From positions 2,500,613 through 2,564,612 of the forward strand of contig OZ244988.1 in NCBI GenBank assembly GCA_965223185.1: a DNA stretch of 64,000 bases, read 5' to 3'. Each line of letters starts with the position of its first letter. Position 1 is the first letter of the stretch. A program made the translations under genes and the position numbers. The notes beneath the pieces were generated by a model. It saw only the letters and a list, made by a program, of their open reading frames with translations, ran no database searches and was not told where the DNA came from. The stretch is from Nitrospirales bacterium (GTDB lineage Bacteria > Nitrospirota > Nitrospiria > Nitrospirales > UBA8639). Below are positions 26,491 to 50,181 of the stretch, piece after piece.

Positions 26491-26542
26491 TAGCATCTTG
26501 GAAAGATCTTCATCTCAGAAAGAGAAGTAGACAAACGGCGAT

Positions 26543-28006
26543 ATGAGTCATCCAATGTCGAACGGTCGTCAAGCTTCTGGAGGATCACCGGTCATGGAGC
26601 CTCCCGATGCAAAGACCTCTACCGCTTCTCAAACATCGAGAGAGCCAGCCAGCCAATCCGAAAAAGGAGGGGACATCGATCCCCATCTTTTGGTCGCTCT
26701 CCTTCAATTAGAAAGCCAAGCGCGAACGGCGCAAACGGTCAAGGAGCTATGTTTTCTGCTAGCCAATGAAACCCGGCGTCTCGTCAGTTTTCGCCAGGCC
26801 TGCGTGTTCTCAATGGGTACACAATTGCGAAAGACCTGCCAGGTAGAAGTCGTGTCGAGTGTGGCCGTGGTGGATCGCAAGTCCCCGATGGTGCAATGGA
26901 TTGAAGAGGTCGTATCAAGTCTCTGGGACAATCAGTCCTTACAAGCCCCGTGTCATTTGAATGTTCAACAATGTCCGAAGCATCTTCAAGCCGATTGGAG
27001 GCGATTCGCCTTTCCGCATGTCTTATGGTGTCCGATTATTTGGGGCAATCAACAGGTGTTGGGCGGAATGTGGTTGGCGAGGGAACGCCCCTGGCTGGAA
27101 GGGGAAATCCAACTCATTCGGCGTTTTGCCGAAACGGTGGCGCATGCCTGGAATGCGTTAGGGAAAACGAAAACGTCAGTCAAACATCTGACCATATCCA
27201 AGCGCTGGGTGTGGATGGGTGTGGCGTTGTTGTTTGCCGTCATGTGTTTTCCGGTTCATGTATCAACGTTAGCGCCCGTCGAAGTCGTGGCGCGAGATCC
27301 CATTGTGGTCACCGCACCGCTTGATGGGGTCATTGCGGAAATTTTGGTGCAACCGAATACGGTCGTTCAAGAAGGAAGCACCTTGTTTCGGTATGAGGAC
27401 ACGAAGTTTCGCAATGACTATGAAGTGGCGGAAAAGAATTTAGCCGTGGGATTGATGGAATACCGGAAAGTCACACAAGGGGCCTTTTTTGATGACGAAA
27501 CAGGCGCGGGAATGCCGGTACAGGCTTCCGAAGTCCGCCTAAAAGAGGCCGAGCGTGATTATGCGTGGGAAGTGCTGCAACAGGTGGAAGTCAAATCGAC
27601 TCGACAAGGTATTGTCTTGTTTGGGGATAAATCGGATTGGGTCGGAAAACCCGTGGTGATCGGTGAACGGATTATGGAAGTCGCCGATCCCAAGGAATAT
27701 GAGTTGAAAATTGATCTACCAGTCGAAGATGCAATCGTGCTTCATGAAGGAGCGGACGTTGATGTGTTTCTTGACGCGAATCCTCTGAAGGCCATTCCTG
27801 CGACCCTCACCCATGCCAGTTATCACGCTGAAGTATTGCCGACGAATGAATTCGCCTACCGTGTGAAAGCCGAAATCACCGAGCAACCGGAATCCATCCG
27901 CATTGGCTGGCAGGGGACAGCGAAAATCTATGGAGAACGGGTGTCGTTGTTCTTCTATGTGTTTCGTCGCCCCCTGTCGGTCCTGCGCCAAACGATAGGT
28001 TGGTAA
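26543..28006 (+). CDS. Membrane protein with a cytoplasmic GAF-like N-domain, one TM and an HlyD-like periplasmic adaptor domain
   Basis: TM WVWMGVALLFAVMCFPVHV followed by VVTAPLDGVIAEILVQPNTVVQEGSTLFRYED, the adaptor lipoyl-like motif. The GAF-like call for residues ~60-200 is based on general appearance only. Confidence 0.7.
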   Translation: MSHPMSNGRQASGGSPVMEPPDAKTSTASQTSREPASQSEKGGDIDPHLLVALLQLESQARTAQTVKELCFLLANETRRLVSFRQACVFSMGTQLRKTCQVEVVSSVAVVDRKSPMVQWIEEVVSSLWDNQSLQAPCHLNVQQCPKHLQADWRRFAFPHVLWCPIIWGNQQVLGGMWLARERPWLEGEIQLIRRFAETVAHAWNALGKTKTSVKHLTISKRWVWMGVALLFAVMCFPVHVSTLAPVEVVARDPIVVTAPLDGVIAEILVQPNTVVQEGSTLFRYEDTKFRNDYEVAEKNLAVGLMEYRKVTQGAFFDDETGAGMPVQASEVRLKEAERDYAWEVLQQVEVKSTRQGIVLFGDKSDWVGKPVVIGERIMEVADPKEYELKIDLPVEDAIVLHEGADVDVFLDANPLKAIPATLTHASYHAEVLPTNEFAYRVKAEITEQPESIRIGWQGTAKIYGERVSLFFYVFRRPLSVLRQTIGW

Positions 28007-33313: not shown

Positions 33314-33475
33314 CGTCATTCTCACAGGATACTGGTGGGTCGTTTTCCCACTCTGGTCATTCCCGAGGTTGGTTGTCCGGACTCTCACCACTCAGGTCAT
33401 TCCCGAAGTTTGTTGTCGGGAATCTCTCTTGGTTTCCTTGCGGAGAGCTCCCTGCCACCAACCTGCAGGGATGAC
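33314..33475 (+). repeat. REP-like palindromic array B', the right copy of the direct repeat
   Basis: cgtcattctcacaggatactggtgggtcg; ggtcattcccgaggttggttgtccggactc; ggtcattcccgaagtttgttgtcgggaatc; tccctgccaccaacctgcagggatgac. It is colinear with 32129-32290. Confidence 0.75.
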
Positions 33476-33766
33476 TGAAGGGGGGATGCCTGCTACCGGC
33501 ACGCGGGGATAATGGAGGGGGGAGGGGGCTTTGCGCTATTTTTATCCTCACCAACATCAAAACAGCAATCACAAGACGACAAAACCTTTATCAACTGTCA
33601 CCATTCACAAAATAACGCGGAAGAAGCTTCCATATTTAGCGTCAAGAGATTGGTGAATTGGACGACAAAAGAATAGGGGATTTTCCCCCATAGAGGGAGT
33701 GGTGTTTGCCGTGATATTCGCATCGACCCCTATCGGACTAGAGAAGATGCATCAAGGAATCGTGTG

Positions 33767-36700
33767 ATGAATAAGATGATGTGCAAGCCTGCCACGCTGG
33801 ATGCCGTGAAAGAGAAGAAAGCCGATACGGCGAAGACTAAATCCGGCACCCCAAAAAAGAATAAAGCCAAAGCCCAACAAGAAGAAGCCGAACCCGTGAG
33901 CGGCATCGGGCTTCTGGTCGCACTCGAGCCGCGCATCATGTTCGATGGCGCGGCGTTGGCCACCGGAGCCGAAGTCATCCAAGACACCACGACCCAAGAC
34001 CAAACGGAAATCCCCGGCATCGACGGGGAGACCGCCACCGATACCACTTCGACTGACTCCTCTGACAGCGAGGCCCTCTGGTCATCTGGCCTCTCGCTGT
34101 CTGCCCCATCCGATCGCAAAGAAATTGTGTTCATTGACACTGCAGTTGATGATTATCAGACACTCATGGAAGGCATCGACCCCAATGCCGAAGTCATCCT
34201 TTTAGATCCTACTCGGGACGGCATCGAACAAATTGCAGAGATTCTTGGAGACCGCTCGGATATTGATGCCGTCCATATTATTTCACATGGAGATCCCGGG
34301 GAACTGCAACTTGGAACGGGCACGCTTAGCTTCGCGTCGATGCAAGAGGAGTATGCCGACGAACTGGCCACTATCAGCCAAGCCCTTTCCCAAGAGGCTG
34401 ACCTGCTGGTCTATGGCTGTAATTTCGGAGAAGGCGGCTCTGGTACGGAAGCGGCTAATTTATTGGCGGCACTCACAGGGGCAGATGTTGCGGCGAGTAG
34501 TGATCTGACCGGAGCAGAGGCGCTGGGCGGCGACTGGGACCTCGAAATGCAAACCGGCACGATTGAGACAGACGTGATCGTGGATGAGCAAGCCCAAGAA
34601 GTTTTTACCGGCGTGTTAGATATCACGACGGGCTTAGTAGCGGACTGGACATTTGATGCGGATGCTACTGACTCAAGCGGCAATAGTTATGACGGGACCT
34701 TAACGGGTGATGCGTCAATTGATACCGCAGATGCCACAGACATCGTCGGGGAGGGAAAACTTTCATTGGATGGCACTGGAGATTATGTCGATCTGGATGC
34801 GCATATCTCTGCGTTTAGTGGACTAACCGAAGGCACCATTGCAGGATGGGTCAAAGTCACCGATTCGGGAGAAAATATTCTCTTCGGCATTTCAGATTCC
34901 GGCGACTCCCTTAGTCTTGCAAAGTTTGGCATTGAGGCCGGGGGACAAGTGAAATGGCTGATTGGTGAAGGTGGAGGAATTGATGTCCTGGCGTATAGTA
35001 ACCAAACGGTCAATGATGGGGCCTGGCATCATATCGCCATTACCGTCAATTCCAGTGGTACGACCATGTATATTGATGGACAAGTGGCCAGCGTGACGTA
35101 CTCGGGTGGAAGTGCGTCTTCGACGAATTTCTTTTCCACAATTAATGACATTGATGCTGCGGACATTGGACGCTCTTTGCGTGGAGGGGTGTCTGAGGCT
35201 GAATTCAATGGCTTGGCTGATAACGTGAAGATCTATGATCGTGCTCTGAGTTTAGGAGATATTCAAGAACTCGTGGCTCAGGCCCCAACATCATACGGTG
35301 AAATTGGGCATTGGACCTTTGATGCAGATGCCACGGATTCGAGCGGGAACAACTACGATGGCACACTCACCAACGGAGCTATTATTGATACGACCGATAC
35401 GACGGATCAAGTTGGTGGCGCCAAACTGTCGTTGGATGGGACGAATGATTACGTGGATCTCTCGAGCCACGTGTCCAATTTTAGCAGTCTCAATGAAGGG
35501 ACGATTTCGGGATGGATCAACACCACCGGGACCTATGAAACAATCTTTTCAATCTCAAGTACGGCTGATGCGAATAGCTATGCCACCTTATTCGTAGGGG
35601 CTTCGGGATACCTCACGTTTGAAGTGTATGAAAATGGCTCTCCAATTTTGGCCGTCTACAATGGCAATGGGGACACGATTAATGATGGTACGTGGCACCA
35701 CGTGTCGATCTCAATGAGTGCGACAGGAAATAGTCTCTACATAGATGGACAACTGATTGCACCAGGCGATCTCATCTACGATACAGGGTCAGCATCCACC
35801 AGTGCGTTCTTTAATGATGTCTCTGGATTGGACGCTATGGCGGTCGGTCGCAATGAAAACTCGAGTGGAGGACGCTGGTATACCAGCGGATTGATTGATG
35901 ATGTTCGCGTACATAATCGAGCATTAAGTACGGCAGTTATCGCTCAGTTAGCGCAAGAAGCGCCTGTTGCCAATGACGATACGGCCACCACCACGGCGGG
36001 CACGCCGGTGACGATAGACGTGAAGTCGAATGACACCGACCTGGACAGTGAAACCATCACCGTCCTGGATGTCGGTAATCCTACCAACGGTATCGTGGTC
36101 AACAACGAAGACGGCACGGTCACCTACACTGCGAATGGAAACTACACCGGGTCCGATAGTTTTAGCTACCTCACAGCCGATCTGGACGATACCATCAGCT
36201 ATTGGCGGCTGGATGGGGATGCCACTGATGCGGTGGGCAGTAATGACGGAACCATCACCGGAACGACCACCGTCGAAGGCGCGTATGGAGACGCCTTGAG
36301 CTTCGATGAAGTCGATGATAAGGTGGTCATCTCCGACTTCTCCTACGGGAATGAATTCAGCCTGTCGTTTAAAATCAAGATCGATGACAACAGTGGGTCC
36401 TCATTCCAGTACATCTACAGTCATGGGGATATCAACTCTGCCAATAGTTTGAATGTTTTTCTCGGGGAAACTTCATCGGGTGCATCAAATCTCCTCCGCA
36501 CCGTTATTCGAGACACCAACGATACCCTAGAAAATTCTGCCTTGGACTTCGATGTCAGCAGCATCATCGGGGATGGTCAATGGCATACCTACACGCTAAC
36601 AGTCGCGAATGGGGTAGGATCGAAAGTGTATTTGGATGGGGTCCTGAAGAATACCGATACGCGTGGCGGGGAGGCCTTTGATCCTGGAACGGATCTCTAT

Positions 36701-39700
36701 CTAGGTGCGCGGCAAGATTTAGACGCCAATCGGTATTTTGGCGGTTCTCTCGACAGCGTCCAACTCTTCAACCGGGCCCTCAGTGAGTCGGAAGTCGAAG
36801 ATACACACACCGGCGGCAATTCCTTAGGGACGGTCAATGTCACCGTCACCACGGATAGCGCGCCGGTGAATTCCGTACCAGGCAGCCAAACCACCAACGA
36901 AGACACGACGCTCACGTTTAATACTGCGAACAGCAATCTCATCTCTATCACCGATGATGCCGGCGATACCTTAGTGGTCACCTTGTCGGTCAATAACGGG
37001 ACTGCCACACTCTCCGGCACGAGCGGGTTGACGTTTACTACCGGAGACGGGACCGCAGATGCCACCATGACCTTCTCGGGTACGGTGGAAGATATCAATA
37101 CCGCGTTGGACGGTCTTCAATACGATCCCACTACGGACTACTCAGGCAGCGATACGCTCACTCTCACAAGTTACGATCAAATTCTCTACTCCTTAGACTT
37201 TGATGCCAATCTGCAAGGGTACTATCAATTTGACAGCGGCGATCCCGGCAACGACAGCAGTCCCGGCGGGACCTTGGACGGCACGCTTAATGGAGATGCG
37301 GCTGTCATTACAGATGGAACGCGAGGAGATGTGCTGTCTCTCGATGGGACCGGTGACTATGTGGAGATTGCAGGAACTTTATCAAATCCCACCAACGTCA
37401 CGTTGTCAGCCTGGGTGAAATACTCCTCCGCGCCCGCCAACGGGGGTGAAGTGATCTCCATCGGCAACGATATCGCGTTACGAGTCGATGATTGGACTCA
37501 GGGGGTGACAGGATTTTTCTATGATGGAACTACTCATCAATTTATCGGCAGTAGTGTCAGTTTGGCCGATAATAATTGGCATCACATCGCCTTCACCTTT
37601 GATGATGGGGCGAATACTCAAAGTCTCTACATTGATGGGACTTTAGTTGCTTCAGGCAACTTTACCTCTTCCATCACCTATACCGGCTGGTTTCCCCAGA
37701 CGACGATCGGAACCCACGCGGATTTGGGCGACTCGAGTTTTGACTTCAGTGGGTTGATCGATGATGCCCGAATTTACGATCGGGCCTTGTCGGCCAGCGA
37801 AATCCAGGGGATGGCGTCGGCCCCGGTGACGGCTAGCGACACCGATACGGTGGCTCTGACTGTGACTTCGGTGAATGATGATCCGGTCATCTCCAGCGAT
37901 GGCGGAGGAGCCACGGCGAATATCAATGTGGCTGAAAACACGACGGCAGTTACTACCGTTACTTCCACGGATGTGGATGGCGGCACGGCGATCTATTCCA
38001 TTAGCGGTGGGCTTGATGCGGCGAAATTCAGCATTAATAGTTCAACCGGGGAACTGGTCTTCCAGGCCGCGCCGGACTATGAAACCCCGACCGATTCCAA
38101 TGGCGACAATGTCTATGAAGTTATCGTTCTGGTCTCGGATGGCAACGGCGGGACGGATACGCAGACCATCAATGTGACGGTTACGGATGTAGCCAATACG
38201 CTGACGGTCACGACGACAGCCGATAACAACGACAGCGGCATCGTCGCTGGCGATGGCAACTATGACATCGAATGGTTGAATGCCAATTTGGGGGCAGACT
38301 CCTCCATCTCCTTGCGTGAAGCGATTATCGCGGCCAATAACACCACCGGCACCGATACGATTTCCTTCAACATCTCCGATCCATTGGTGAGCGGGGCGCA
38401 CACCATCGACGTCCTTTCGGCCTTGCCCGATATTACCGACTCGATCATCATCGACGGGACGACAGAACCGGATTTTGCCGGCACACCCATCATTGAATTA
38501 GATGGATCGAGTGCCGGGGCCGGGGTTGATGGGCTGCGTCTGATTTCCGGCAGTGACGGCAGTACCATTCGTGGCTTAGTCATCAATCAATTTAGTTCGC
38601 AGGGGATTGAAATTAATAATTCCGATGGGAATACCATTGCCGGCAATTATATTGGAACGGATGTGACGGGAACGGTGGATTTGGGAAATGGCAGTGCGGG
38701 GATTTATCTTTTCAGCGCGCAGAACAATACCATTGGTGGCACAACCGCCGCCGATCGAAACCTGATTTCCGGCAATCAAGGGAGTGGAATTTTGCGGCAA
38801 GGCTCCAATGGGGGCAACCTTATTCAAGGCAATTACATCGGAACAGATGTCACGGGAACGCTCGATCTTGGCAATACGCAAAATGGGATTGCCTTCGCGG
38901 GATCTGGAGCGGATACCATTGGAGGGTCGGTGGCAGGAGCTGGCAATGTGATTTCGGGCAACAATATGTCTGGTATCTCCATCGGCGTAGGGGCGGATGG
39001 TGTCACGATTCAAGGCAATATTATTGGGTTAAATGCCGCTGGGACTGGGATAATTGCCAATACAGGAGATGGGATCGCGCTAAGCAGTGACAATAATCAA
39101 GTTGGGGGCACGACGGCTGCGGCCCGCAATATTATTTCCGGTAATACCAGCGATGGGATTGCCTTAGACGGAGATAATAATATTGTTCAAGGCAATTATA
39201 TTGGAACAGACATCACGGGCACGGTGGATCTCGGAAATACGGATGATGGAATTGATATTTCCGGTGCCACGAATACGATTGGTGGAACGACTGCTGGGGC
39301 GCGAAACATTATTTCTGGGAATGACCAGGATGGGATTGAAATCGGTAATGCGACGGCAACCGGCAATATTGTGCAAGGGAACTATATTGGAACCGATGTC
39401 ACAGGGACCCTGGATTTGGGCAATAGTGATGATGGCATCCAAATTTTTAACGGCGCCACGTTTAATACCATTGGTGGTACGACGGCGAGTGCCAGAAATG
39501 TCATTTCTGGAAATGATGGTCGTGGCATAGATATTTTTGACGCTGCTACGACGAATAACTCGATCCTCGGCAATTATATTGGGTTAAATGCTGCAGGGAC
39601 GGCAGATTTAGGGAATACTTTAGAAGGGATCCAAATTGATACCAATGCGGCGGGAAATACCATTGGGGGAGCCGTGGCAGGAGCCGGGAATGTGATTTCT

Positions 39701-42700
39701 GGCAATGATGCCGGTGGGATCATCATTGGAACTGGTGCTGATAATACCACGATCCAAGGTAATACGATTGGCCTGAATGCGGCGGGAACCGGTATCGTCG
39801 CCAATACAGGTCATGGCATCACGATTAATGCGAACAATACGCAAATTGGAGGCACCACGGCGCTCGCGCGAAATGTCATTTCAGGTAACTCCCAAGATGG
39901 TATTTATGTGTCGAGTGCCTCTGGGACGACGATTGAAGGCAATTATATTGGGACAGATGTGACCGGAACCGTCGATTTGGGAAACAGTCGGTATGGGATC
40001 TATTTGTTGAGTGCCACGAACACGATCATTGGGGGCTCAGTCGTTGGGGCGCGGAATGTGATTGCGGGAAATACCAATTCTGGAATTCGTGATCAAAGCT
40101 CTTCAGGCACCACGATACAAGGGAATTACATAGGCGTGGACTCAACTGGGACGACGGCGATGGGTAATTCCCAGGGCATTCAAGTCTGGAGTTCCACCAA
40201 TGGCACGATTGGGGGTTCAGGAGCCAATGAAGGTAATGTCATTGGTGGAAATACCAATCAAGGAATTCTGTTTTACGGATCTTCAGGGTATACGGCGCAG
40301 GGGAACTATATTGGGACGGATGCGACAGGAACCGTAGATTTGGGGAATGGTGGTCATGGAATCGTGTTCTCTAGTACGGCCTCAAATTTTGTGATTGGTG
40401 GAACAAGTGCCGGAGAAGGTAATGTTATTGCCTTTAATGCTCTTGATGGGATTAGTGCCCCGAGTACAGCAAGCGATATTTCAATACTGGGCAATCAAAT
40501 CTATTCTAATACCGGCCTCGGGATTGACTTGGTTGGGGGCACAGAAGATGGAGCAGGTGTCACTGCTAATGATGCTGGGGATGCTGATACGGGTGCGAAT
40601 GGGCTTCAGAACTATCCGGTCCTAACTGCAGTTAATACGACAGGAAGTTCAGTCAGTATTACCGGGTCGTTGAATAGCACGGCTAGCACGACCTTCCGTA
40701 TCGAGTTTTATGCGAGTGCTGCAGCCGATGGGTCGGGATACGGGGAAGCCGAACGGTATTTAGGCTATGCCACGGTGACAACGGATGGGAGCGGCAATTG
40801 CACGATGAATCTCACGGAATCCTGGGCGGTGGCCTCCGGGGAATATGTCACGGCGACTGCCACCGTGATAACCGATGCTGGACAAGTCGGTGTCGATGAT
40901 GCGCTGGCCTATGGTAATACCTCCGAGTTCTCGCAAAATGTGGTGGCCAATACCGGACCGGTGAATACCGTGCCGGGGGCTCAAGTGGTCAATGAAGATA
41001 CAGTGTTGGCCATCAGTGGCATTTCTGTCGCCGATTCCAATAGCAATCTTTCAACAGTCCAATTATCGGTCACCAATGGCGCGTTGACGGTCACATTGAG
41101 TGGTGGAGCCACCATCAGTGCTGGGACCAATGGAACAAGTACCCTCACCATTTCAGGAACACAAGCAGATATTAATGCCACCTTAGCCAGTCTGACCTAC
41201 CAAGGGGATCTCAATTTCAATGGCAGTGACACGCTCACGATTCTGAGTACGGATGCAGGTGCTTTAACGGATACGGACACCGTTGACATCACCGTGAACG
41301 CAGTGAATGATGCGCCGGTGAACACGGTGCCGGGGGCGCAAGTGGTTCTCGAGGATACGGCATTGAACATCACCGGTATTTCCGTGAATGACGTGGATGG
41401 CAACCTGTCCACGGTCCAACTCTCTGTCACGAACGGGACGCTGAATGTAACGTTGAGTGGTGCGGCCACGATTAGTGCAGGGGCTAACGGGACGAACACC
41501 TTGACCTTGAGTGGCTCCCAAGCCGACATCAACGCGACCTTGGCGAGCCTGACTTACCAGGGTACCCTCAATTATGTGGGAAGCGATACCCTGACCGTGC
41601 TTTCGACTGACACGAATTCCGCGACCGATTCTGACACCGTTTCCATTACAGTCAATCAAGACAATGATGCGCCAGTTGTTACGGCTAGTGGTGGTGCCAC
41701 CAGTTATACGGAACAAGCGACCGCCACGGTAATTGATAACGCTCTCACGCTCGTTGACCCCGATGGCTTTGATGGGACAGACCCCTCCGATCAGTATGTG
41801 GGTGTGGTTCAAATCACAGGAAATTATGAGGCAGCAGATATCCTAGGTTTTACCAACACCTCAAAGATTCAGGGAAATCTATCCGGTGATACCTTGACTC
41901 TCACGGTTATTGGAGGGCAGACGGCGACGGTCGCGGAGTTTGAGGCGGCTTTGCGCACAGTGACCTTCTATAGTGGTAGTGATACACCCAGCGAGTTGGA
42001 TCGAACCATCACTTTTAGTTTTGATGACGGCGTGGATAGCTCCAACTCCTCTACGAAGACGGTGCAAGTGACGGCTGTCAATGATCAGGCCATCGCGGAT
42101 CTTAATGGGGCGGATGGGGGAGGCAATAATTTTTCCACGACCTTTATGGAAGGATCCGGTGCCCTCAATGTTACTGATACGGATGCCACCCTGAGCGATG
42201 TCGATCACTCCACGTACGATTCCCTCGGGATCAATTTGTCCGGCTTTGTTGATGGGACCAATGAAAAGATCACCATCGCTGGCTATACCTTCACCTTTGG
42301 CACTGCAGAAACTGTTGTCCGAACGGTCGGGGCCACGGATTTTGAGATCGACTTTGATGGGAGTGGCTTTTCTATACAAAAAAATATCAGTGGCGAAATG
42401 CCGGAGGCAGACCTGCAAACGCTTCTTCGTGGCATCACGTACGAAAATATTTCAGAAAACCCGACTATTGGGAACCGTACCATCGATTTTATTCCCCAAG
42501 ATGGTGATGCCTTGGTCGGACAGACCTCTACCAGCACCATCACGGTAGCCGCTACCAATGATGCTCCTGTCATTACAAATCTAGGTGGCGATGCACTCGC
42601 CTACACGGAAGGGGACGGCGCGCAAGTCGAGCAAAGTGCGGATGCCGCCGTCAGTGATGTCGATTCCACGAATTTTGACACGGGGACCCTAACAGTATCC

Positions 42701-45700
42701 TTCCAAGCGGGAAGTGATTCCGCCGAAGATATCTTGAGTCTTCGTAACCAGGGCACGGGCACTGGCCAGATTGGGGTTTCCGGTTCGACCGTCACGTATC
42801 AAGGCGTCACGATTGGGACCTTTACTGGTGGCACAGGCGGCACCGATTTGGTCATTACGTTCAATGCTAGTGCTGATGCGACAGCCGTTAGCGCCCTAAT
42901 CCAAAATATCACCTATGAGAATACCGACACGGACAACCCAACGACAGGCGCCCGAATGGTGCGCTATGTATTGACCGATGGTGATGGCGGCACCAGTGCC
43001 AACTACGACACCACCATCACGGTGAGCAACGTGAACGACGCGCCGGTGAACACGGTGCCGGGGGCGCAAGCCGCGACCGAGGATACGCCCTTGGCCATCA
43101 GCGGCGTGAGTGTCAGTGACGTCGATGACAACCTGAGCACGGTGCAACTGGCGGTGACCAACGGGACGGTGAATGTGACCTTGAGTGGCGGGGCCACCAT
43201 CAGTGCGGGGGCCAACGGCAGCAATACCCTGACGCTCTCCGGCAGCCAAGCCGACATCAACGCCACGTTAGCCAGCTTGAGCTACCAAGGGACCTTGAAC
43301 TATACGGGCAGCGACACGCTGACCATCACGAGCACGGATGCCAATAGTGCCACGGATGTGGATACGGTGGCCATCACGGTGAGCAACGTGAACGACGCGC
43401 CGGTGAACACGGTGCCGGGGGCGCAAGCCGCGACCGAGGATACGCCCTTGGCCATCAGCGGCGTGAGTGTCAGTGACGTCGATGACAACCTGAGCACGGT
43501 GCAACTGGCGGTGACCAACGGGACGGTGAATGTGACCTTGAGTGGCGGGGCCACCATCAGTGCGGGGGCCAACGGCAGCAATACCCTGACGCTCTCCGGC
43601 AGCCAAGCCGACATCAACGCCACGTTAGCCAGCTTGAGCTACCAAGGGACCTTGAACTATACGGGCAGCGACACGCTGACCATCACGAGCACGGATGCCA
43701 ATAGTGCCACGGATGTGGATACGGTGGCCATCACGGTGAGCAACGTGAACGACGCGCCGGTGAACACGGTGCCGGGGGCGCAAGCCGCGACCGAGGATAC
43801 GCCCTTGGCCATCAGCGGCGTGAGTGTCAGTGACGTCGATGACAACCTGAGCACGGTGCAACTGGCGGTGACCAACGGGACGGTGAATGTGACCTTGAGT
43901 GGCGGGGCCACCATCAGTGCGGGGGCCAACGGCAGCAATACCCTGACGCTCTCCGGCAGCCAAGCCGACATCAACGCCACGTTAGCCAGCTTGAGCTACC
44001 AAGGGACCTTGAACTATACGGGCAGCGACACGCTGACCATCACGAGCACGGATGCCAATAGTGCCACGGATGTGGATACGGTGGCCATCACGGTGAGCAA
44101 CGTGAACGACGCGCCGGTGAACACGGTGCCGGGGGCGCAAGCCGCGACCGAGGATACGCCCTTGGCCATCAGCGGCGTGAGTGTCAGTGACGTCGATGAC
44201 AACCTGAGCACGGTGCAACTGGCGGTGACCAACGGGACGGTGAATGTGACCTTGAGTGGCGGGGCCACCATCAGTGCGGGGGCCAACGGCAGCAATACCC
44301 TGACGCTCTCCGGCAGCCAAGCCGACATCAACGCCACGTTAGCCAGCTTGAGCTACCAAGGGACCTTGAACTATACGGGCAGCGACACGCTGACCATCAC
44401 GAGCACGGATGCCAATAGTGCCACGGATGTGGATACGGTGGCCATCACGGTGAGCAACGTGAACGACGCGCCGGTGAACACGGTGCCGGGGGCGCAAGCC
44501 GCGACCGAGGATACGCCCTTGGCCATCAGCGGCGTGAGTGTCAGTGACGTCGATGACAACCTGAGCACGGTGCAACTGGCGGTGACCAACGGGACGGTGA
44601 ATGTGACCTTGAGTGGCGGGGCCACCATCAGTGCGGGGGCCAACGGCAGCAATACCCTGACGCTCTCCGGCAGCCAAGCCGACATCAACGCCACGTTAGC
44701 CAGCTTGAGCTACCAAGGGACCTTGAACTATACGGGCAGCGACACGCTGACCATCACGAGCACGGATGCCAATAGTGCCACGGATGTGGATACGGTGGCC
44801 ATCACGGTGAGCAACGTGAACGACGCGCCGGTGAACACGGTGCCGGGGGCGCAAGCCGCGACCGAGGATACGCCCTTGGCCATCAGCGGCGTGAGTGTCA
44901 GTGACGTCGATGACAACCTGAGCACGGTGCAACTGGCGGTGACCAACGGGACGGTGAATGTGACCTTGAGTGGCGGGGCCACCATCAGTGCGGGGGCCAA
45001 CGGCAGCAATACCCTGACGCTCTCCGGCAGCCAAGCCGACATCAACGCCACGTTAGCCAGCTTGAGCTACCAAGGGACCTTGAACTATACGGGCAGCGAC
45101 ACGCTGACCATCACGAGCACGGATGCCAATAGTGCCACGGATGTGGATACGGTGGCCATCACGGTGAGCAACGTGAACGACGCGCCGGTGAACACGGTGC
45201 CGGGGGCGCAAGCCGCGACCGAGGATACGCCCTTGGCCATCAGCGGCGTGAGTGTCAGTGACGTCGATGACAACCTGAGCACGGTGCAACTGGCGGTGAC
45301 CAACGGGACGGTGAATGTGACCTTGAGTGGCGGGGCCACCATCAGTGCGGGGGCCAACGGCAGCAATACCCTGACGCTCTCCGGCAGCCAAGCCGACATC
45401 AACGCCACGTTAGCCAGCTTGAGCTACCAAGGGACCTTGAACTATACGGGCAGCGACACGCTGACCATCACGAGCACGGATGCCAATAGTGCCACGGATG
45501 TGGATACGGTGGCCATCACGGTGAGCAACGTGAACGACGCGCCGGTGAACACGGTGCCGGGGGCGCAAGCCGCGACCGAGGATACGCCCTTGGCCATCAG
45601 CGGCGTGAGTGTCAGTGACGTCGATGACAACCTGAGCACGGTGCAACTGGCGGTGACCAACGGGACGGTGAATGTGACCTTGAGTGGCGGGGCCACCATC

Positions 45701-48664
45701 AGTGCGGGGGCCAACGGCAGCAATACCCTGACGCTCTCCGGCAGCCAAGCCGACATCAACGCCACGTTAGCCAGCTTGAGCTACCAAGGGACCTTGAACT
45801 ATACGGGCAGCGACACGCTGACCATCACGAGCACGGATGCCAATAGTGCCACGGATGTGGATACGGTGGCCATCACGGTGAGCAACGTGAACGACGCGCC
45901 GGTGAACACGGTGCCGGGGGCGCAAGCCGCGACCGAGGATACGCCCTTGGCCATCAGCGGCGTGAGTGTCAGTGACGTCGATGACAACCTGAGCACGGTG
46001 CAACTGGCGGTGACCAACGGGACGGTGAATGTGACCTTGAGTGGCGGGGCCACCATCAGTGCGGGGGCCAACGGCAGCAATACCCTGACGCTCTCCGGCA
46101 GCCAAGCCGACATCAACGCCACGTTAGCCAGCTTGAGCTACCAAGGGACCTTGAACTATACGGGCAGCGACACGCTGACCATCACGAGCACGGATGCCAA
46201 TAGTGCCACGGATGTGGATACGGTGGCCATCACGGTGAGCAACGTGAACGACGCGCCGGTGAACACGGTGCCGGGGGCGCAAGCCGCGACCGAGGATACG
46301 CCCTTGGCCATCAGCGGCGTGAGTGTCAGTGACGTCGATGACAACCTGAGCACGGTGCAACTGGCGGTGACCAACGGGACGGTGAATGTGACCTTGAGTG
46401 GCGGGGCCACCATCAGTGCGGGGGCCAACGGCAGCAATACCCTGACGCTCTCCGGCAGCCAAGCCGACATCAACGCCACGTTAGCCAGCTTGAGCTACCA
46501 AGGGACCTTGAACTATACGGGCAGCGACACGCTGACCATCACGAGCACGGATGCCAATAGTGCCACGGATGTGGATACGGTGGCCATCACGGTGAGCAAC
46601 GTGAACGACGCGCCGGTGAACACGGTGCCGGGGGCGCAAGCCGCGACCGAGGATACGCCCTTGGCCATCAGCGGCGTGAGTGTCAGTGACGTCGATGACA
46701 ACCTGAGCACGGTGCAACTGGCGGTGACCAACGGGACGGTGAATGTGACCTTGAGTGGCGGGGCCACCATCAGTGCGGGGGCCAACGGCAGCAATACCCT
46801 GACGCTCTCCGGCAGCCAAGCCGACATCAACGCCACGTTAGCCAGCTTGAGCTACCAAGGGACCTTGAACTATACGGGCAGCGACACGCTGACCATCACG
46901 AGCACGGATGCCAATAGTGCCACGGATGTGGATACGGTGGCCATCACGGTGAGCAACGTGAACGACGCGCCGGTGAACACGGTGCCGGGGGCGCAAGCCG
47001 CGACCGAGGATACGCCCTTGGCCATCAGCGGCGTGAGTGTCAGTGACGTCGATGACAACCTGAGCACGGTGCAACTGGCGGTGACCAACGGGACGGTGAA
47101 TGTGACCTTGAGTGGCGGGGCCACCATCAGTGCGGGGGCCAACGGCAGCAATACCCTGACGCTCTCCGGCAGCCAAGCCGACATCAACGCCACGTTAGCC
47201 AGCTTGAGCTACCAAGGGACCTTGAACTATACGGGCAGCGACACGCTGACCATCACGAGCACGGATGCCAATAGTGCCACGGATGTGGATACGGTGGCCA
47301 TCACGGTGAGCAACGTGAACGACGCGCCGGTGGCTGCCAACGATTCATATACGACTTCAGAAGATATTCCGATTACTACCACGCTTGGTACAGGCGTATT
47401 GGCTAATGATTTCGATTTGGATGGAGATACCCTAACCGTTACTACTACGCCGATTGTGGGCGTGTCGAACGGGACGTTAGTTTTGAATGCGGATGGCACC
47501 TTCACTTACACCCCCAATAGCGGGTGGAGTGGGGTGGATACCTTCACCTATCAGGTGACGGATGGGAATGGAGGTAATGCGCAAGCGACAGTGACACTTA
47601 CGGTCGTTAGTGTGAATGACGCGCCGGTGATCACGAGTCATGGGGGCGGTGGGAATGCGGCCCTTTCGATGGCGGAAAATTTGATGGGGGTGACCACCAT
47701 GGCTGCGACGGATGCTGATGGTGATCCGTTGACCTATAGCATTGTTGGTGGGGTCGATGCCGCACGATTTATGATTGATGCGAACAGTGGGGTTCTGAGT
47801 TTCGTCGGGGCACCTGACTTTGAAAATCCTACAGACCTGGGTGGCGATAATGTGTATGACGTACAGATCCAAGTGAGTGATGGACAAGGGGGAACCGACA
47901 TTCAAGCCCTGTCAATCACAGTGACCGACGTGTTGGAAGGGGGAGGTGCGCCACTTCCTACGCCTGATCCTACTCCTGAACCAGAACCTGAGCCAACGCC
48001 TGAGCCTACCCCCGAACCTGAGCCCGATCCTGTCTTGTCGGGTGCCCCCTCTCCCGTTTCGAATCCTATGGAGACCGGTATGGGGTTATTAGATGAAAGT
48101 GACATGGGCAGCCGTGGTATTGAGGATGAGCCTCATCAAATAGGGCACCAGGAGCCGGTCAATGTTTTAGATTTACCCCCATTGCTGCGCCCAGCTTCCT
48201 GGGCGACGACATCTGATCAAATTCGTGCGTATTATCCTGATCCTTTGGATATGAACAACACGGGGCTCTCTCCGGAAGTTCTTCAGCAGTTAACCCAATT
48301 TTCCGATGAATTAGGGCAGACTATGGAGGAACAGGTCGATGATCGTTCCTGGTTCATCAATACGGTCAAGGGCGCTGGACTTTCTTTATCAGCCGGCTTT
48401 GTGGCCTGGATGGTGCGAGGAGGGGCTTTAGTAGCTGGGTTGATGGCCTCGCTTCCCGCATGGAGACATTTTGACCCGGTGCCTATTTTGAGTATGGATA
48501 AAAAAGGTAAAGAAGACTGGACGCGGCGGGTGACAGAAGCCACCAAGTTGGAAGCGCATGAACATCAAGGCTTAGAAAAGATTTTAGGAGGATCTCAATC
48601 GAAGGGTCCGGAGTCTCTCTCTCAAAATCCTGTTGACCCACCCGCATCCCCCCCTCTCCCATGA
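33767..48664 (+). CDS. Giant repetitive surface protein 2 (about 4965 aa): Lys-rich N-terminus, LEPRIMFDGA motif, DUF4347-like domain, four LamG/ConA-like modules, cadherin-like modules, a long right-handed beta-helix, at least 15 NDAPVN-type 119-aa repeats (12 identical), Pro/Thr/Glu linker, C-terminal double-TM anchor
   Basis: A single uninterrupted 14.9-kb frame. I prefer the ATG at 33767 (AAGGAA 8 nt upstream) over the adjacent GTG at 33764. Motifs: LVALEPRIMFDGAALATGAEV; SDRKEIVFIDTAVDDYQTL...IHIISHGDPGELQLG; four W.FD.DATDSSGN.YDGTL ... DD/N.(K/R)IY.RALS modules (LamG_3-like); SLREAIIAANN followed by many N.I.GNYIGTDVTGT.DLGN coils; NDAPVNTVPGAQ repeats; PTPDPTPEPEPEPTPEPTPEPEPDP; GLSLSAGFVAWMVRGGALVAGLMASLPAWRHFDPVPIL. 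No GGxGxD RTX repeats were seen. Confidence 0.93.
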   Translation: MNKMMCKPATLDAVKEKKADTAKTKSGTPKKNKAKAQQEEAEPVSGIGLLVALEPRIMFDGAALATGAEVIQDTTTQDQTEIPGIDGETATDTTSTDSSDSEALWSSGLSLSAPSDRKEIVFIDTAVDDYQTLMEGIDPNAEVILLDPTRDGIEQIAEILGDRSDIDAVHIISHGDPGELQLGTGTLSFASMQEEYADELATISQALSQEADLLVYGCNFGEGGSGTEAANLLAALTGADVAASSDLTGAEALGGDWDLEMQTGTIETDVIVDEQAQEVFTGVLDITTGLVADWTFDADATDSSGNSYDGTLTGDASIDTADATDIVGEGKLSLDGTGDYVDLDAHISAFSGLTEGTIAGWVKVTDSGENILFGISDSGDSLSLAKFGIEAGGQVKWLIGEGGGIDVLAYSNQTVNDGAWHHIAITVNSSGTTMYIDGQVASVTYSGGSASSTNFFSTINDIDAADIGRSLRGGVSEAEFNGLADNVKIYDRALSLGDIQELVAQAPTSYGEIGHWTFDADATDSSGNNYDGTLTNGAIIDTTDTTDQVGGAKLSLDGTNDYVDLSSHVSNFSSLNEGTISGWINTTGTYETIFSISSTADANSYATLFVGASGYLTFEVYENGSPILAVYNGNGDTINDGTWHHVSISMSATGNSLYIDGQLIAPGDLIYDTGSASTSAFFNDVSGLDAMAVGRNENSSGGRWYTSGLIDDVRVHNRALSTAVIAQLAQEAPVANDDTATTTAGTPVTIDVKSNDTDLDSETITVLDVGNPTNGIVVNNEDGTVTYTANGNYTGSDSFSYLTADLDDTISYWRLDGDATDAVGSNDGTITGTTTVEGAYGDALSFDEVDDKVVISDFSYGNEFSLSFKIKIDDNSGSSFQYIYSHGDINSANSLNVFLGETSSGASNLLRTVIRDTNDTLENSALDFDVSSIIGDGQWHTYTLTVANGVGSKVYLDGVLKNTDTRGGEAFDPGTDLYLGARQDLDANRYFGGSLDSVQLFNRALSESEVEDTHTGGNSLGTVNVTVTTDSAPVNSVPGSQTTNEDTTLTFNTANSNLISITDDAGDTLVVTLSVNNGTATLSGTSGLTFTTGDGTADATMTFSGTVEDINTALDGLQYDPTTDYSGSDTLTLTSYDQILYSLDFDANLQGYYQFDSGDPGNDSSPGGTLDGTLNGDAAVITDGTRGDVLSLDGTGDYVEIAGTLSNPTNVTLSAWVKYSSAPANGGEVISIGNDIALRVDDWTQGVTGFFYDGTTHQFIGSSVSLADNNWHHIAFTFDDGANTQSLYIDGTLVASGNFTSSITYTGWFPQTTIGTHADLGDSSFDFSGLIDDARIYDRALSASEIQGMASAPVTASDTDTVALTVTSVNDDPVISSDGGGATANINVAENTTAVTTVTSTDVDGGTAIYSISGGLDAAKFSINSSTGELVFQAAPDYETPTDSNGDNVYEVIVLVSDGNGGTDTQTINVTVTDVANTLTVTTTADNNDSGIVAGDGNYDIEWLNANLGADSSISLREAIIAANNTTGTDTISFNISDPLVSGAHTIDVLSALPDITDSIIIDGTTEPDFAGTPIIELDGSSAGAGVDGLRLISGSDGSTIRGLVINQFSSQGIEINNSDGNTIAGNYIGTDVTGTVDLGNGSAGIYLFSAQNNTIGGTTAADRNLISGNQGSGILRQGSNGGNLIQGNYIGTDVTGTLDLGNTQNGIAFAGSGADTIGGSVAGAGNVISGNNMSGISIGVGADGVTIQGNIIGLNAAGTGIIANTGDGIALSSDNNQVGGTTAAARNIISGNTSDGIALDGDNNIVQGNYIGTDITGTVDLGNTDDGIDISGATNTIGGTTAGARNIISGNDQDGIEIGNATATGNIVQGNYIGTDVTGTLDLGNSDDGIQIFNGATFNTIGGTTASARNVISGNDGRGIDIFDAATTNNSILGNYIGLNAAGTADLGNTLEGIQIDTNAAGNTIGGAVAGAGNVISGNDAGGIIIGTGADNTTIQGNTIGLNAAGTGIVANTGHGITINANNTQIGGTTALARNVISGNSQDGIYVSSASGTTIEGNYIGTDVTGTVDLGNSRYGIYLLSATNTIIGGSVVGARNVIAGNTNSGIRDQSSSGTTIQGNYIGVDSTGTTAMGNSQGIQVWSSTNGTIGGSGANEGNVIGGNTNQGILFYGSSGYTAQGNYIGTDATGTVDLGNGGHGIVFSSTASNFVIGGTSAGEGNVIAFNALDGISAPSTASDISILGNQIYSNTGLGIDLVGGTEDGAGVTANDAGDADTGANGLQNYPVLTAVNTTGSSVSITGSLNSTASTTFRIEFYASAAADGSGYGEAERYLGYATVTTDGSGNCTMNLTESWAVASGEYVTATATVITDAGQVGVDDALAYGNTSEFSQNVVANTGPVNTVPGAQVVNEDTVLAISGISVADSNSNLSTVQLSVTNGALTVTLSGGATISAGTNGTSTLTISGTQADINATLASLTYQGDLNFNGSDTLTILSTDAGALTDTDTVDITVNAVNDAPVNTVPGAQVVLEDTALNITGISVNDVDGNLSTVQLSVTNGTLNVTLSGAATISAGANGTNTLTLSGSQADINATLASLTYQGTLNYVGSDTLTVLSTDTNSATDSDTVSITVNQDNDAPVVTASGGATSYTEQATATVIDNALTLVDPDGFDGTDPSDQYVGVVQITGNYEAADILGFTNTSKIQGNLSGDTLTLTVIGGQTATVAEFEAALRTVTFYSGSDTPSELDRTITFSFDDGVDSSNSSTKTVQVTAVNDQAIADLNGADGGGNNFSTTFMEGSGALNVTDTDATLSDVDHSTYDSLGINLSGFVDGTNEKITIAGYTFTFGTAETVVRTVGATDFEIDFDGSGFSIQKNISGEMPEADLQTLLRGITYENISENPTIGNRTIDFIPQDGDALVGQTSTSTITVAATNDAPVITNLGGDALAYTEGDGAQVEQSADAAVSDVDSTNFDTGTLTVSFQAGSDSAEDILSLRNQGTGTGQIGVSGSTVTYQGVTIGTFTGGTGGTDLVITFNASADATAVSALIQNITYENTDTDNPTTGARMVRYVLTDGDGGTSANYDTTITVSNVNDAPVNTVPGAQAATEDTPLAISGVSVSDVDDNLSTVQLAVTNGTVNVTLSGGATISAGANGSNTLTLSGSQADINATLASLSYQGTLNYTGSDTLTITSTDANSATDVDTVAITVSNVNDAPVNTVPGAQAATEDTPLAISGVSVSDVDDNLSTVQLAVTNGTVNVTLSGGATISAGANGSNTLTLSGSQADINATLASLSYQGTLNYTGSDTLTITSTDANSATDVDTVAITVSNVNDAPVNTVPGAQAATEDTPLAISGVSVSDVDDNLSTVQLAVTNGTVNVTLSGGATISAGANGSNTLTLSGSQADINATLASLSYQGTLNYTGSDTLTITSTDANSATDVDTVAITVSNVNDAPVNTVPGAQAATEDTPLAISGVSVSDVDDNLSTVQLAVTNGTVNVTLSGGATISAGANGSNTLTLSGSQADINATLASLSYQGTLNYTGSDTLTITSTDANSATDVDTVAITVSNVNDAPVNTVPGAQAATEDTPLAISGVSVSDVDDNLSTVQLAVTNGTVNVTLSGGATISAGANGSNTLTLSGSQADINATLASLSYQGTLNYTGSDTLTITSTDANSATDVDTVAITVSNVNDAPVNTVPGAQAATEDTPLAISGVSVSDVDDNLSTVQLAVTNGTVNVTLSGGATISAGANGSNTLTLSGSQADINATLASLSYQGTLNYTGSDTLTITSTDANSATDVDTVAITVSNVNDAPVNTVPGAQAATEDTPLAISGVSVSDVDDNLSTVQLAVTNGTVNVTLSGGATISAGANGSNTLTLSGSQADINATLASLSYQGTLNYTGSDTLTITSTDANSATDVDTVAITVSNVNDAPVNTVPGAQAATEDTPLAISGVSVSDVDDNLSTVQLAVTNGTVNVTLSGGATISAGANGSNTLTLSGSQADINATLASLSYQGTLNYTGSDTLTITSTDANSATDVDTVAITVSNVNDAPVNTVPGAQAATEDTPLAISGVSVSDVDDNLSTVQLAVTNGTVNVTLSGGATISAGANGSNTLTLSGSQADINATLASLSYQGTLNYTGSDTLTITSTDANSATDVDTVAITVSNVNDAPVNTVPGAQAATEDTPLAISGVSVSDVDDNLSTVQLAVTNGTVNVTLSGGATISAGANGSNTLTLSGSQADINATLASLSYQGTLNYTGSDTLTITSTDANSATDVDTVAITVSNVNDAPVNTVPGAQAATEDTPLAISGVSVSDVDDNLSTVQLAVTNGTVNVTLSGGATISAGANGSNTLTLSGSQADINATLASLSYQGTLNYTGSDTLTITSTDANSATDVDTVAITVSNVNDAPVNTVPGAQAATEDTPLAISGVSVSDVDDNLSTVQLAVTNGTVNVTLSGGATISAGANGSNTLTLSGSQADINATLASLSYQGTLNYTGSDTLTITSTDANSATDVDTVAITVSNVNDAPVAANDSYTTSEDIPITTTLGTGVLANDFDLDGDTLTVTTTPIVGVSNGTLVLNADGTFTYTPNSGWSGVDTFTYQVTDGNGGNAQATVTLTVVSVNDAPVITSHGGGGNAALSMAENLMGVTTMAATDADGDPLTYSIVGGVDAARFMIDANSGVLSFVGAPDFENPTDLGGDNVYDVQIQVSDGQGGTDIQALSITVTDVLEGGGAPLPTPDPTPEPEPEPTPEPTPEPEPDPVLSGAPSPVSNPMETGMGLLDESDMGSRGIEDEPHQIGHQEPVNVLDLPPLLRPASWATTSDQIRAYYPDPLDMNNTGLSPEVLQQLTQFSDELGQTMEEQVDDRSWFINTVKGAGLSLSAGFVAWMVRGGALVAGLMASLPAWRHFDPVPILSMDKKGKEDWTRRVTEATKLEAHEHQGLEKILGGSQSKGPESLSQNPVDPPASPPLP
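38590..40500 (+). repeat. Degenerate in-frame coil repeats of the parallel beta-helix region (about 22-aa coils in roughly 65-aa super-repeats)
   Basis: The protein shows recurring I.GNYIGTDVTGT.DLGN...GI.......N.IGG......RN.ISGN...GI blocks. The DNA copies are clearly diverged. Confidence 0.7.
40960..41670 (+). repeat. Two diverged copies of the NDAPVN-type 119-aa repeat, older paralogues of the amplified unit
   Basis: GPVNTVPGAQVVNEDTVLAISGISVADSNSNLSTVQLSVTNGALTVTLSGG... and NDAPVNTVPGAQVVLEDTALNITGISVNDVDGNLSTVQLSVTNGTLNVTLSGA... align along their whole length with the amplified unit but differ at many nucleotide positions. Confidence 0.85.
43021..47304 (+). repeat. 12 head-to-tail, apparently identical copies of a 357-bp (119-codon) in-frame tandem repeat
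   Basis: Unit starts fall every 357 nt: 43021, 43378, 43735, 44092, 44449, 44806, 45163, 45520, 45877, 46234, 46591 and 46948. The sense translation and two antisense ORF series (112 aa and 107 aa) are letter-identical in every copy. Partial identity extends to about 43012 and 47331. Confidence 0.97.
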
Positions 48665-50181
48665 ACCGTTCCACTCCCTTGCTTTGGATCAGCTTTGGAC
48701 TGGTCTCTCTCACTCTGAGTATTTTGCTCATGAGTGATCTGGCCGTGGATTTAGTCCCTAATCAAGCTAAAGAAATTTTTGAATACCGGCAAAAATACAG
48801 TGAAGCGTTGGCTGTTCAATATTCCCTACTGGCGGAAAATGGGGATAGCCGAGCTATTCAGGAGGCCTTTGACCTTTTAATTGAACGGAATGATGACATC
48901 CTATCTGCTTCTGTGATTTTAGCCAATGGTGAGACCTTGGCTGTTTCTGGTCGACACCATCAACTCTGGAAGCAACCTTCAGGAGACTCGTCCACCCCCG
49001 ATCATATTCAGGTCCCAATTTATAATAGCCGCGAGCGGTGGGGAACGGTTCAATTACGATTTCGATCTCTTGAGAATAAAGGGTGGCTCGATTGGTTGAG
49101 GGATCCATGGATTCAGTTTTTGGGTCTGGTCGTGGGGTCTGGGTTTATGGGTTATTTTTTGTATATGAAACGCACATTACATCAACTGGATCCCAGCTCA
49201 GTAGTTCCTTTACGTGTGAAAGCGGCATTTGATGTGCTGACAGAAAGTGTGGTGCTGCTCGATAATGGTGAACGGATTGTTCTTGCTAATCGAGCTTTTG
49301 GAGGTGTGGTCGGAAAGAATCCTAATGAGCTCGTTGGTACACGACTTGATGAATATCACTGGAATTCGGTTTCTCCCGCTCCACTCATGACCATCTTTCC
49401 GTGGAAGACGGCGCGCAAGGAAAAATGCGTGGAATTGGATTGTCCTATGAGCCTCACCGACGTTTCGGGAAAAGTGTTAAAGTTTCGGGTGAATTGTACG
49501 CCAATTCTTAATGATCGCGAACTTGTCCAAGGTGTGTTGGTTTCCTTTGATGATGTGACCAGGTTGGAAGAAACGATTTTGGAACTTGAATCATCCAAAA
49601 TGGAAATGGAAAGTCTCGCAATGCGGGATCCGCTTACGGGCATTTTCAATCGACGTGCTTTATTTGAGGCGTTTGAGGATCTTCATCAAGTGAGTATTGC
49701 AGAGTTGGGGGATTATGGCTGCATCATGTGTGATATTGATCATTTTAAATCGTTTAACGATCGTTTTGGTCATGCGGTTGGGGATCAGGTGATTCAAGTC
49801 GTTGGCAAAATTCTTTCCACCACGATTCGGCCAACCGATATCATTGGTCGATACGGAGGTGAAGAGTTTTGCATTTTATTACCTGGTCAAGGTCCGGAGG
49901 AGACGGCCATTGCCGCTGAACGTCTACGTCTTGCTATTTCGGCTCGTGCCAGCCAAGCCATACGCACGACAGGAGATAACCGTATTACCATGAGCTTTGG
50001 AACGTCCTGTTTATCTTTGGGCGCCTCTGACCCTTTGGAATTGGTCGATCAGGCGGATAAGGCTTTGTATGTTGCAAAACAAGCTGGCCGGAACCAGGTG
50101 GGACAATGGACTTCCGAAGGTCCCCAAGCCGGTCTTCCTATTACATTAGAAGTAGAGAGTTTTGCAGGGTCAGTCGACTAG
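48661..50181 (+). CDS. Membrane sensor diguanylate cyclase: TM, periplasmic domain, TM, PAS and GGDEF
   Basis: Active-site RYGGEEF with an RPTD (RxxD I-site) five residues upstream, plus DIDHFKSFND. The first ~310 aa are paralogous to the N-terminus of the hybrid kinase at 17356-19869. The ATG overlaps the giant gene stop (ATGA at 48661-48664). Confidence 0.9.
   Translation: MNRSTPLLWISFGLVSLTLSILLMSDLAVDLVPNQAKEIFEYRQKYSEALAVQYSLLAENGDSRAIQEAFDLLIERNDDILSASVILANGETLAVSGRHHQLWKQPSGDSSTPDHIQVPIYNSRERWGTVQLRFRSLENKGWLDWLRDPWIQFLGLVVGSGFMGYFLYMKRTLHQLDPSSVVPLRVKAAFDVLTESVVLLDNGERIVLANRAFGGVVGKNPNELVGTRLDEYHWNSVSPAPLMTIFPWKTARKEKCVELDCPMSLTDVSGKVLKFRVNCTPILNDRELVQGVLVSFDDVTRLEETILELESSKMEMESLAMRDPLTGIFNRRALFEAFEDLHQVSIAELGDYGCIMCDIDHFKSFNDRFGHAVGDQVIQVVGKILSTTIRPTDIIGRYGGEEFCILLPGQGPEETAIAAERLRLAISARASQAIRTTGDNRITMSFGTSCLSLGASDPLELVDQADKALYVAKQAGRNQVGQWTSEGPQAGLPITLEVESFAGSVD

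Follow-up and report, generated by a model that had tools for sequence, protein, structure and literature searches.

We analysed a 64,000-nucleotide (nt) stretch of a Nitrospirales bacterium (phylum Nitrospirota; GenBank contig OZ244988.1, positions 2,500,613 to 2,564,612 of the forward strand), hereafter the window, which carries a giant open reading frame (ORF) of 4,966 amino acids (aa). Within this frame lies a perfect tandem array of twelve 357-nt units, and it is this array, together with the codon usage of its silent sites, that is described here. The features of the giant gene on which the analysis draws are listed below, numbered from the first base of the window; GC3 denotes the fraction of G or C at third codon positions.

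33764..48664, + strand: giant ORF, 4,966 aa, with DUF4347, LamG, cadherin-like and beta-helix domains and a C-terminal anchor
34124..34618, + strand: DUF4347 (PF14252), aa 121-285, Pfam E 5.7e-58
36842..37198, + strand: oldest paralogue of the repeated module, 39% aa identity to the unit
40937..41293, + strand: diverged paralogue par1, 66% nt and 71% aa identity to the unit, GC3 0.52
41294..41650, + strand: diverged paralogue par2, 72% nt and 82% aa identity to the unit, GC3 0.69
43014..47332, + strand: perfect tandem array, 12 identical 357-nt units plus 35 nt, aa ~3084-4523, GC3 0.84
43022..43378, + strand: first unit in domain register, VSNVNDAPV...TVAIT, 119 aa
47333..48661, + strand: non-repeated C-terminal part, with two cadherin-like domains, a Pro/Glu-rich linker and a conserved module LDLPPLLRPASWATT...QIRAYY
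48392..48454, + strand: sole strongly hydrophobic segment (aa 4877-4897, Kyte-Doolittle scan), with residues invariant in orthologues; predicted membrane anchor

From the N to the C terminus, the protein displays a LLVALEPRIMFDGAALATGAEV motif, DUF4347, four LamG-type domains, a cadherin domain and a long parallel beta-helix region, followed by two diverged module copies along with other cadherin-like domains, the 12-copy array, two further cadherin-like domains, a Pro/Glu-rich linker and the C-terminal module. The latter (C-terminal ~230 aa, window 47900-48661) is a conserved module combining the invariant LDLPPLLRPASWATT...QIRAYY with a Gly/Ala-rich hydrophobic hairpin at aa 4877-4897, and it matched no Pfam or NCBIfam family. 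Profile searches with the whole protein returned Cadherin_4 (PF17803; E 7e-86, 16 stretches), Big_9 (PF17963; E 2e-48) and the NCBIfam tandem-95 family (NF012211; E 3e-112, 17 stretches), placing it in the cadherin-like/tandem-95 family, whilst the N-terminal DUF4347 at aa 121-285 also makes it a DUF4347 giant protein. An earlier annotation made without database searches (the sequence-only reading) had proposed a surface-protein stalk, and the layout recovered here agrees with this: the stalk of repeats follows a ligand-type head and precedes one predicted hydrophobic anchor at the C-terminal end. For DUF4347 itself, the literature searched gave incidental mentions and no functional work.

Tandem Repeats Finder reported the array at 43014-47332 with a period of 357, 12.1 copies, 100% matches, 0 indels and a score of 8638, and a direct comparison of each base with the base 357 nt further on gave one unbroken periodic stretch of 4,319 nt (12.098 copies). 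All 12 full units (12/12) reduce to one distinct nucleotide sequence. Chance is not a possible explanation for periodicity over 4.3 kb without a mismatch. The twelve identical in-frame repeats of the sequence-only reading were thus recovered by both methods, and the base-by-base comparison found none of the differences between copies that it feared to have overlooked; its start at 43021, by contrast, is out of register, as codons begin at 43013/43022 and the first Val of VSNVNDAPV lies at 43022. The array is in frame within the ORF at 33764-48664 (+). As one unit is one complete folded domain (see the model below) and 357 = 3 x 119, any copy number would preserve both frame and fold, in agreement with the earlier claim that unit and domain borders coincide. 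The periodic antisense ORFs noted previously also exist, two per unit (112 and 107 aa); they recur because the units are identical and GC3-rich. We rejected them as genes and regard them as periodic by-products with one stop per unit each.

Two consecutive units were modelled with AlphaFold from an alignment of 37 sequences. The model has a mean predicted local distance difference test score (pLDDT) of 94.7 and predicts a cadherin-like beta-sandwich per unit, made of ten strands and one short helix at ADINATLASL, with the same pattern in both modelled units. The best Foldseek matches in the PDB are tandem rod-forming beta-sandwiches, namely the SraP cadherin-like modules, protocadherins and the AhLap RTX-adhesin tetra-tandem 6xi1. 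This last structure, an Aeromonas hydrophila RTX adhesin extender, matches the unit structurally at 23-24% identity; by sequence it is a weak match, reached only when all units are summed, and three units alone found no sequence match to any solved structure in the PDB. Each unit contains 10 Asp and 1 Glu, with no Lys, Arg or His, and is joined to the next by an acidic linker, SNVNDAP. The NVNDAP of this linker resembles the DxNDNAP Ca2+ linker motif of cadherins.

A single unit matches Big_9 alone, with E 8e-6 and in its C-terminal half, so family profiles cover the module poorly. A profile built from the four in-gene copies instead retrieved the module in 11,407 representative proteins (E <= 1e-3), and the 150 best-scoring proteins listed carry 3-36 stretches each; the module is a common extender. 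Arrays of exactly 357-nt period, with identities of 78-84%, occur elsewhere, with 42 copies at 84% identity (L081), 22 copies at 82% (L082) and at least 15 copies at ~80%, the last with sub-blocks of identical copies (L080).

The older, strongly diverged paralogues named by the sequence-only reading are real, at 72% and 66% nt identity to the unit for the two nearest and 39% aa identity for the oldest. Since the array copies are identical and the in-gene paralogues so distant, either a recent amplification burst or homogenisation is indicated, as was proposed earlier. At ordinary bacterial mutation rates, we estimate that 0 differences in 4,284 nt would place the shared ancestor ~10^5-10^6 generations ago, unless the copies are homogenised. 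The array is nonetheless not simply a neutral, very young duplicate of adjacent sequence, because its synonymous codon usage differs sharply from that of the rest of the gene, a contrast that the sequence-only reading missed.

C-terminal orthologues share 51-75% identity and are all fragmentary (ENA and JGI metagenome assemblies and one NCBI genome), and a search of genome contigs with the C-terminal part returned only distant domain-level relatives at 27-56% identity. A degenerate 31-nt DNA pattern from the unit had no match in metagenome contigs, and a protein search with the unit yielded only fragments of at most 209 aa and at most 84% identity, amongst which was neither a donor nor a sister strain. 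In the scaffold L084, the ORF crosses a 100-N gap inside the module array, directly before the equivalent of position 47333, and the unit tail SDTDATTITVSSINDAPV is present on both sides of the gap. Four metagenome contigs (L085-L088) start inside a repeated domain beside this same position: L086 begins with a unit tail ~88% identical to that of the window, in L085, L087 and L088 this place is taken by a different repeated module, and in L090 by a third type. The sequence-only reading had flagged the array as a classic place for assembly error, and the gap and the four contig starts show this position to be such a trouble spot. Immediately before the anchor, modules have turned over repeatedly, and short-read assembly fails there. 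L084 also contains a perfectly identical tract of ~190 nt in two adjacent units with diverged flanks, a conversion-like mosaic to be read with caution in a short-read scaffold. In the syntenic 4.1-Mb relative L083, positions 7158-10723 hold a 444-aa DUF4347 fragment and the C-terminal 240 aa, with IS21/IS3-type transposase genes between them; the giant gene is dispensable in that lineage. Taken together, the gap, the contig breaks and the module turnover in relatives support, without proving, a variable stalk length.

The codon usage of the array sets it apart from its surroundings. GC3 is 0.84 in the array, whereas the parts of the ORF upstream and downstream of it have 0.54 and 0.49, respectively, and the other ORFs 0.37-0.58. 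None of 1,106 control windows of 357 nt reached 0.84 (maximum 0.72, z = 4.6). The borders of the shift run from 15 nt upstream of the periodic part to its last base. GC at codon positions 1 and 2 is unchanged in the array, and the shift persists within codon classes; we therefore rejected amino-acid composition as its cause. A universal rise of GC3 in tandem arrays was likewise rejected, as 23 arrays from unrelated genomes differ from their surroundings mostly within ~0.08, with five exceptions of 0.09-0.18 in size and at most +0.18. Within the gene, GC3 forms a gradient from par1 (0.52) through par2 (0.69) to the unit (0.84). Relatives display the same excess: the units of L084 have GC3 0.83-0.95 as compared to 0.42-0.60 elsewhere in that ORF, and in L085-L088 and L090 GC3 reaches 0.8-0.97 where the sequence is repeated, compared with 0.45-0.65. 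In this lineage the excess spans three unrelated repeated module types.

Pooling repeated and non-repeated parts revealed that the shift is confined to certain codon classes:

Four-fold boxes, G- or C-ending: repeated 0.98 (524/537), non-repeated 0.68, Fisher 4e-64
NNY (pyrimidine-ending) boxes, C-ending: repeated 0.72 (206/285), non-repeated 0.33, Fisher 7e-38
Gln/Glu/Lys, G-ending: repeated 0.32 (15/47), non-repeated 0.39, no shift
TTA/TTG, G-ending: repeated 0.62 (10/16), non-repeated 0.64, no shift

Had Gln/Glu/Lys undergone a shift of the size seen in NNY boxes, 0.78 of these codons would be expected to end in G; the observed fraction departs from this with P = 3e-11, or 8e-4 with three unrelated modules only. 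A preference for C over T and for A over G in two-fold boxes is the outcome expected from selection for Watson-Crick-matched decoding. Among silent third-position differences between the window and L084, G<->C swaps account for 54% in the units and 21% in the non-repeated C-terminal part, an excess which argues that the G/C state of the units is old and maintained.

The identity of the array copies and their number of twelve were read from the assembly consensus, and perfect identity, the count, or both could be products of assembly or polishing, with ambiguous mapping equalising the copies and too few spanning reads setting their number. Tandem repeats are a documented source of assembly error (PMC6868369), the source sequence appears to be metagenome-derived, and the same position beats assemblers in relatives, as the L084 gap and the L085-L088 contig ends attest. 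Yet the 14.9-kb ORF runs without a frameshift, including across 36 G5 runs in the array, which suggests that the consensus is accurate; 12 separate copies are not what a short-read assembler would write out, since it would collapse them; and both the codon signature and the array position recur in independent short-read assemblies of relatives. An artefact would at most alter the count or hide a few variants and leave the array itself in place, and we regard one as improbable, whilst the count of 12 and the presence of a few hidden variants are uncertain. We consider it probable that the array is genuine, either very young or actively homogenised, and that its twelve cadherin-like extender domains form the stalk of a giant Nitrospirota surface adhesin. 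GlnRS also places the organism in the Nitrospirota, with one match at 100%, the next best at 85%, and named relatives annotated as Nitrospirota bacterium or Nitrospirales. Besides the reliance on a consensus, three observations weigh against this view. Arrays of the same module in other organisms last until ~80% identity, such that homogenisation is not universal; no second strain of the same species was found in which array length could be compared, and look-ups of the exact sequences of the giant protein, the GGDEF protein and GlnRS returned nothing; and the giant protein has neither a classical signal peptide nor an RTX or type I secretion system (T1SS) signal, with no ABC-transporter domain in any of the 19 window ORFs of at least 300 aa (0/19), although an ABC component could sit outside the window.

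As for the origin of the codon state, the unit might have been imported recently from the homologous gene of a high-GC organism and then amplified, GC3 0.84 being an undecayed donor signature. The sharp GC3 jump at the array edges, the in-gene gradient from par1 to the unit and the long arrays that the same module makes in 68%-GC organisms (L081, L082) would all agree with this. However, CAG (87-96%), TCG and CTG/CTC are the codons of choice in those high-GC arrays, and TTG and AGT are nearly absent from them, whereas the unit uses CAA in 4/4 cases, TTG/TTA in 5/10 and AGT in 5/15. Nor does any database protein count as closer to the unit than its own paralogue (84% for the closest, 82% for par2), and the donor account has further to contend with the same excess on three unrelated repeated module types in several relatives and with the G<->C swaps (54% vs 21%), which indicate an old, maintained state. 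On these sequence comparisons, recent import from a high-GC donor is unlikely, and we give it very little credence. GC-biased gene conversion deserves somewhat more weight: heteroduplexes between copies, repaired with a lean towards G/C, would push weakly selected sites to G or C. This would explain why the excess tracks being repeated and not the type of domain, and why it is old and maintained; the conversion-like mosaic in L084 and a slight lean of replacement differences towards G/C (14 vs 8 and 22 vs 16) point the same way. The array also shares with multigene families under such conversion, which is described mainly for eukaryotes, homogenised copies whose silent sites are G/C-richer than single-copy sequence. 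Unlike under a uniform conversion bias, though, the shift in the array spares A/G-ending two-fold codons: Gln/Glu/Lys are unshifted (15/47 vs 0.39, with 0.78 predicted), as are TTA/TTG. Moreover, arrays of 90-98% identity elsewhere lack the excess, both at low GC (L048, L038, L064, L075) and at mid GC (L052, L031). The codon-class pattern is not the one that uniform GC-biased conversion or mutation pressure would produce, and biased conversion survives only if strong selection bars G-ending codons in exactly those boxes; we consider it doubtful.

Our leading hypothesis is that the codon state most likely reflects decoding-level selection, acting more strongly on sequence that is copied many times. 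The NNY and Gln/Glu/Lys classes of three tricarboxylic acid (TCA) cycle genes in the window lean as the array does. Counting against decoding-level selection, the four-fold boxes of the same three genes shift to C-ending and not to G-ending codons. We tentatively suggest, as a possibility still short of probable, that in the giant adhesin genes of this Nitrospirota lineage the currently repeated module is held in a special codon state that is old, is shared between species and is lost once the module is no longer repeated, as in par2 (0.69) and par1 (0.52), and that, through concerted evolution, a silent change has its selective effect multiplied by the number of copies. If this were true, selection on decoding, or on the nucleic acid as such, would be strong within intragenic arrays and so set them apart as islands in a weakly biased gene, which would newly connect repeat dynamics with bacterial codon usage. 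The contrast lies within one reading frame, where the same mRNA at the same expression level differs in silent-site composition; it can therefore discriminate between hypotheses on codon usage, and counts against uniform GC-biased conversion and foreign origin. The literature searched contained nothing relevant on codon bias or biased conversion in bacterial adhesin repeat arrays, and the codon finding could matter more than the array itself.

With regard to protein function, the giant protein fits the known Periscope/adhesin-extender class; the array is nothing new in kind, whereas the codon state is. In Periscope Proteins (SasG, Rib/alpha C, Sgo_0707 and CdrA), extreme repeat identity accompanies extreme repeat numbers (Whelan et al. 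2021, PMC8201768). Like the giant protein, they have long tandem repeats of high DNA identity, each encoding a folded domain; their repeats sit between a distal functional region and a cell-proximal anchor, an arrangement predicted for the giant protein as well. In the present case, repeat DNA identity is 100% over 12 x 357 nt, and the AlphaFold model (pLDDT 94.7), together with Foldseek matches to tandem rods, predicts a folded, rod-forming domain. Differences lie in the host, here an environmental diderm, in the domain, here cadherin-like with an 'IN' helix, and in the anchor, which is LPXTG in Periscope Proteins and an uncharacterised C-terminal module here. Their defining trait is a strain-variable repeat number, whereas the number reported here is known from one assembled sequence.

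The RTX-adhesin extenders offer a second comparison. RII of the Marinomonas primoryensis ice-binding adhesin comprises ~120 identical 104-residue extender repeats (PMC4083281), and the MhLap/AhLap extenders (PDB 6XI3/6XI1) are tandem beta-sandwiches whose acidic linkers are stiffened by Ca2+ in solved cases (PMC7493085). Shared with the array are tandem beta-sandwich domains, up to 100% identical within one protein, and acidic linkers; with 11 acidic and no basic residues, the unit would by analogy bind Ca2+. The defining RTX/T1SS features, in contrast, are missing: the 4,966 aa contain no GGxGxD motif, no RTX family occurs among the Pfam matches, RTX nonapeptides and a T1SS C-terminal signal are absent from the giant protein, and no T1SS is adjacent within the window, which offers a TolC-like protein and two HlyD-type proteins without an ABC transporter. 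LapA-type adhesins furthermore bear a retention module at the N terminus, where the giant protein has DUF4347, its hydrophobic anchor being C-terminal. We therefore do not class it with the RTX/T1SS adhesins. With cadherin extracellular (EC) repeats, the unit shares the fold of tandem protocadherin/cadherin EC domains, and differs in being bacterial, in its 14-21% sequence identity and in its extra short helix.

By analogy with these systems, a distal head, a repeat stalk beside a proximal anchor, and neighbouring genes of cyclic di-guanosine monophosphate (c-di-GMP) signalling would together correspond to the Periscope/extender layout of a biofilm adhesin. Whole domains would be gained or lost when the identical 357-bp units recombine unequally or slip during replication. 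With each domain adding ~4-5 nm (~55 nm for all twelve), the stalk would then differ in length from cell to cell and from strain to strain, a behaviour inferred from the Periscope class (PMC8201768) and also known from RTX-adhesin extenders. Ca2+ would probably stiffen the linkers between units, and expression of the giant gene is probably linked to c-di-GMP and biofilm control. These observations would extend the Periscope/extender principle to an uncultured, environmentally important phylum, the Nitrospirota, and to DUF4347 proteins. On a practical level, the database length of this gene is not trustworthy without spanning reads.

Several neighbouring genes bear on the regulation and export of the giant protein:

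48661..50181, + strand: PAS-GGDEF diguanylate cyclase, whose start overlaps the stop of the giant gene (ATGA); translationally coupled
24017-25636, + strand: TolC-like outer membrane factor
26543-28006, + strand: GAF-HlyD adaptor
28000-30138, + strand: M50-type (HExxH) intramembrane protease fused to HlyD

The TolC-like, GAF-HlyD and M50-HlyD genes (24017..30138) are a candidate export and processing set for the giant protein. In the 68%-GC organism L082 (positions 1-16688), the gene order is M50, DUF4347 giant protein, outer membrane factor and HlyD-like protein, and TolC, HlyD and M50-HlyD together with a DUF4347 giant may represent a previously undescribed dedicated export/processing system. 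The motif LLVALEPRIMFDGAALATGAEV before DUF4347 is common to both DUF4347 proteins of the window, which share a near-identical stretch, LL(V)ALEPRIMFDGAAL(A/V)TGAEV, just ahead of that domain (within 33764-34120 and 23300-23585 (-)). The second DUF4347 protein also lacks a classical signal peptide, and the shared motif may be a secretion or processing signal.

Genes for c-di-GMP and two-component signalling are dense around both DUF4347 genes (13647-19869 on the - strand and 48661-50181 on the + strand), and comprise EAL/HDOD, response regulator-GGDEF-EAL, a hybrid histidine kinase with Hpt, and PAS-GGDEF. A small toxin-antitoxin island at 30160-33700 separates the export genes from the giant gene; it comprises a nucleotidyltransferase, two PIN-type toxins and AbrB/Phd-type antitoxins, and one of its PIN pairs is flanked by two pairs of 40-nt tandem repeats (32152-32243 and 33348-33426). 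The same toxin-antitoxin types lie upstream of the giant-gene remnant in L083. No tRNA genes were found within the window. At its end, 61309-63885 encodes an 858-aa protein with a BrxC/BrxD-type ATPase domain (BREX phage defence). Cumulative GC skew climbs steadily over 1-64000, with G > C on the + strand throughout, and third-position G versus C in the genes of the window tracks gene strand.

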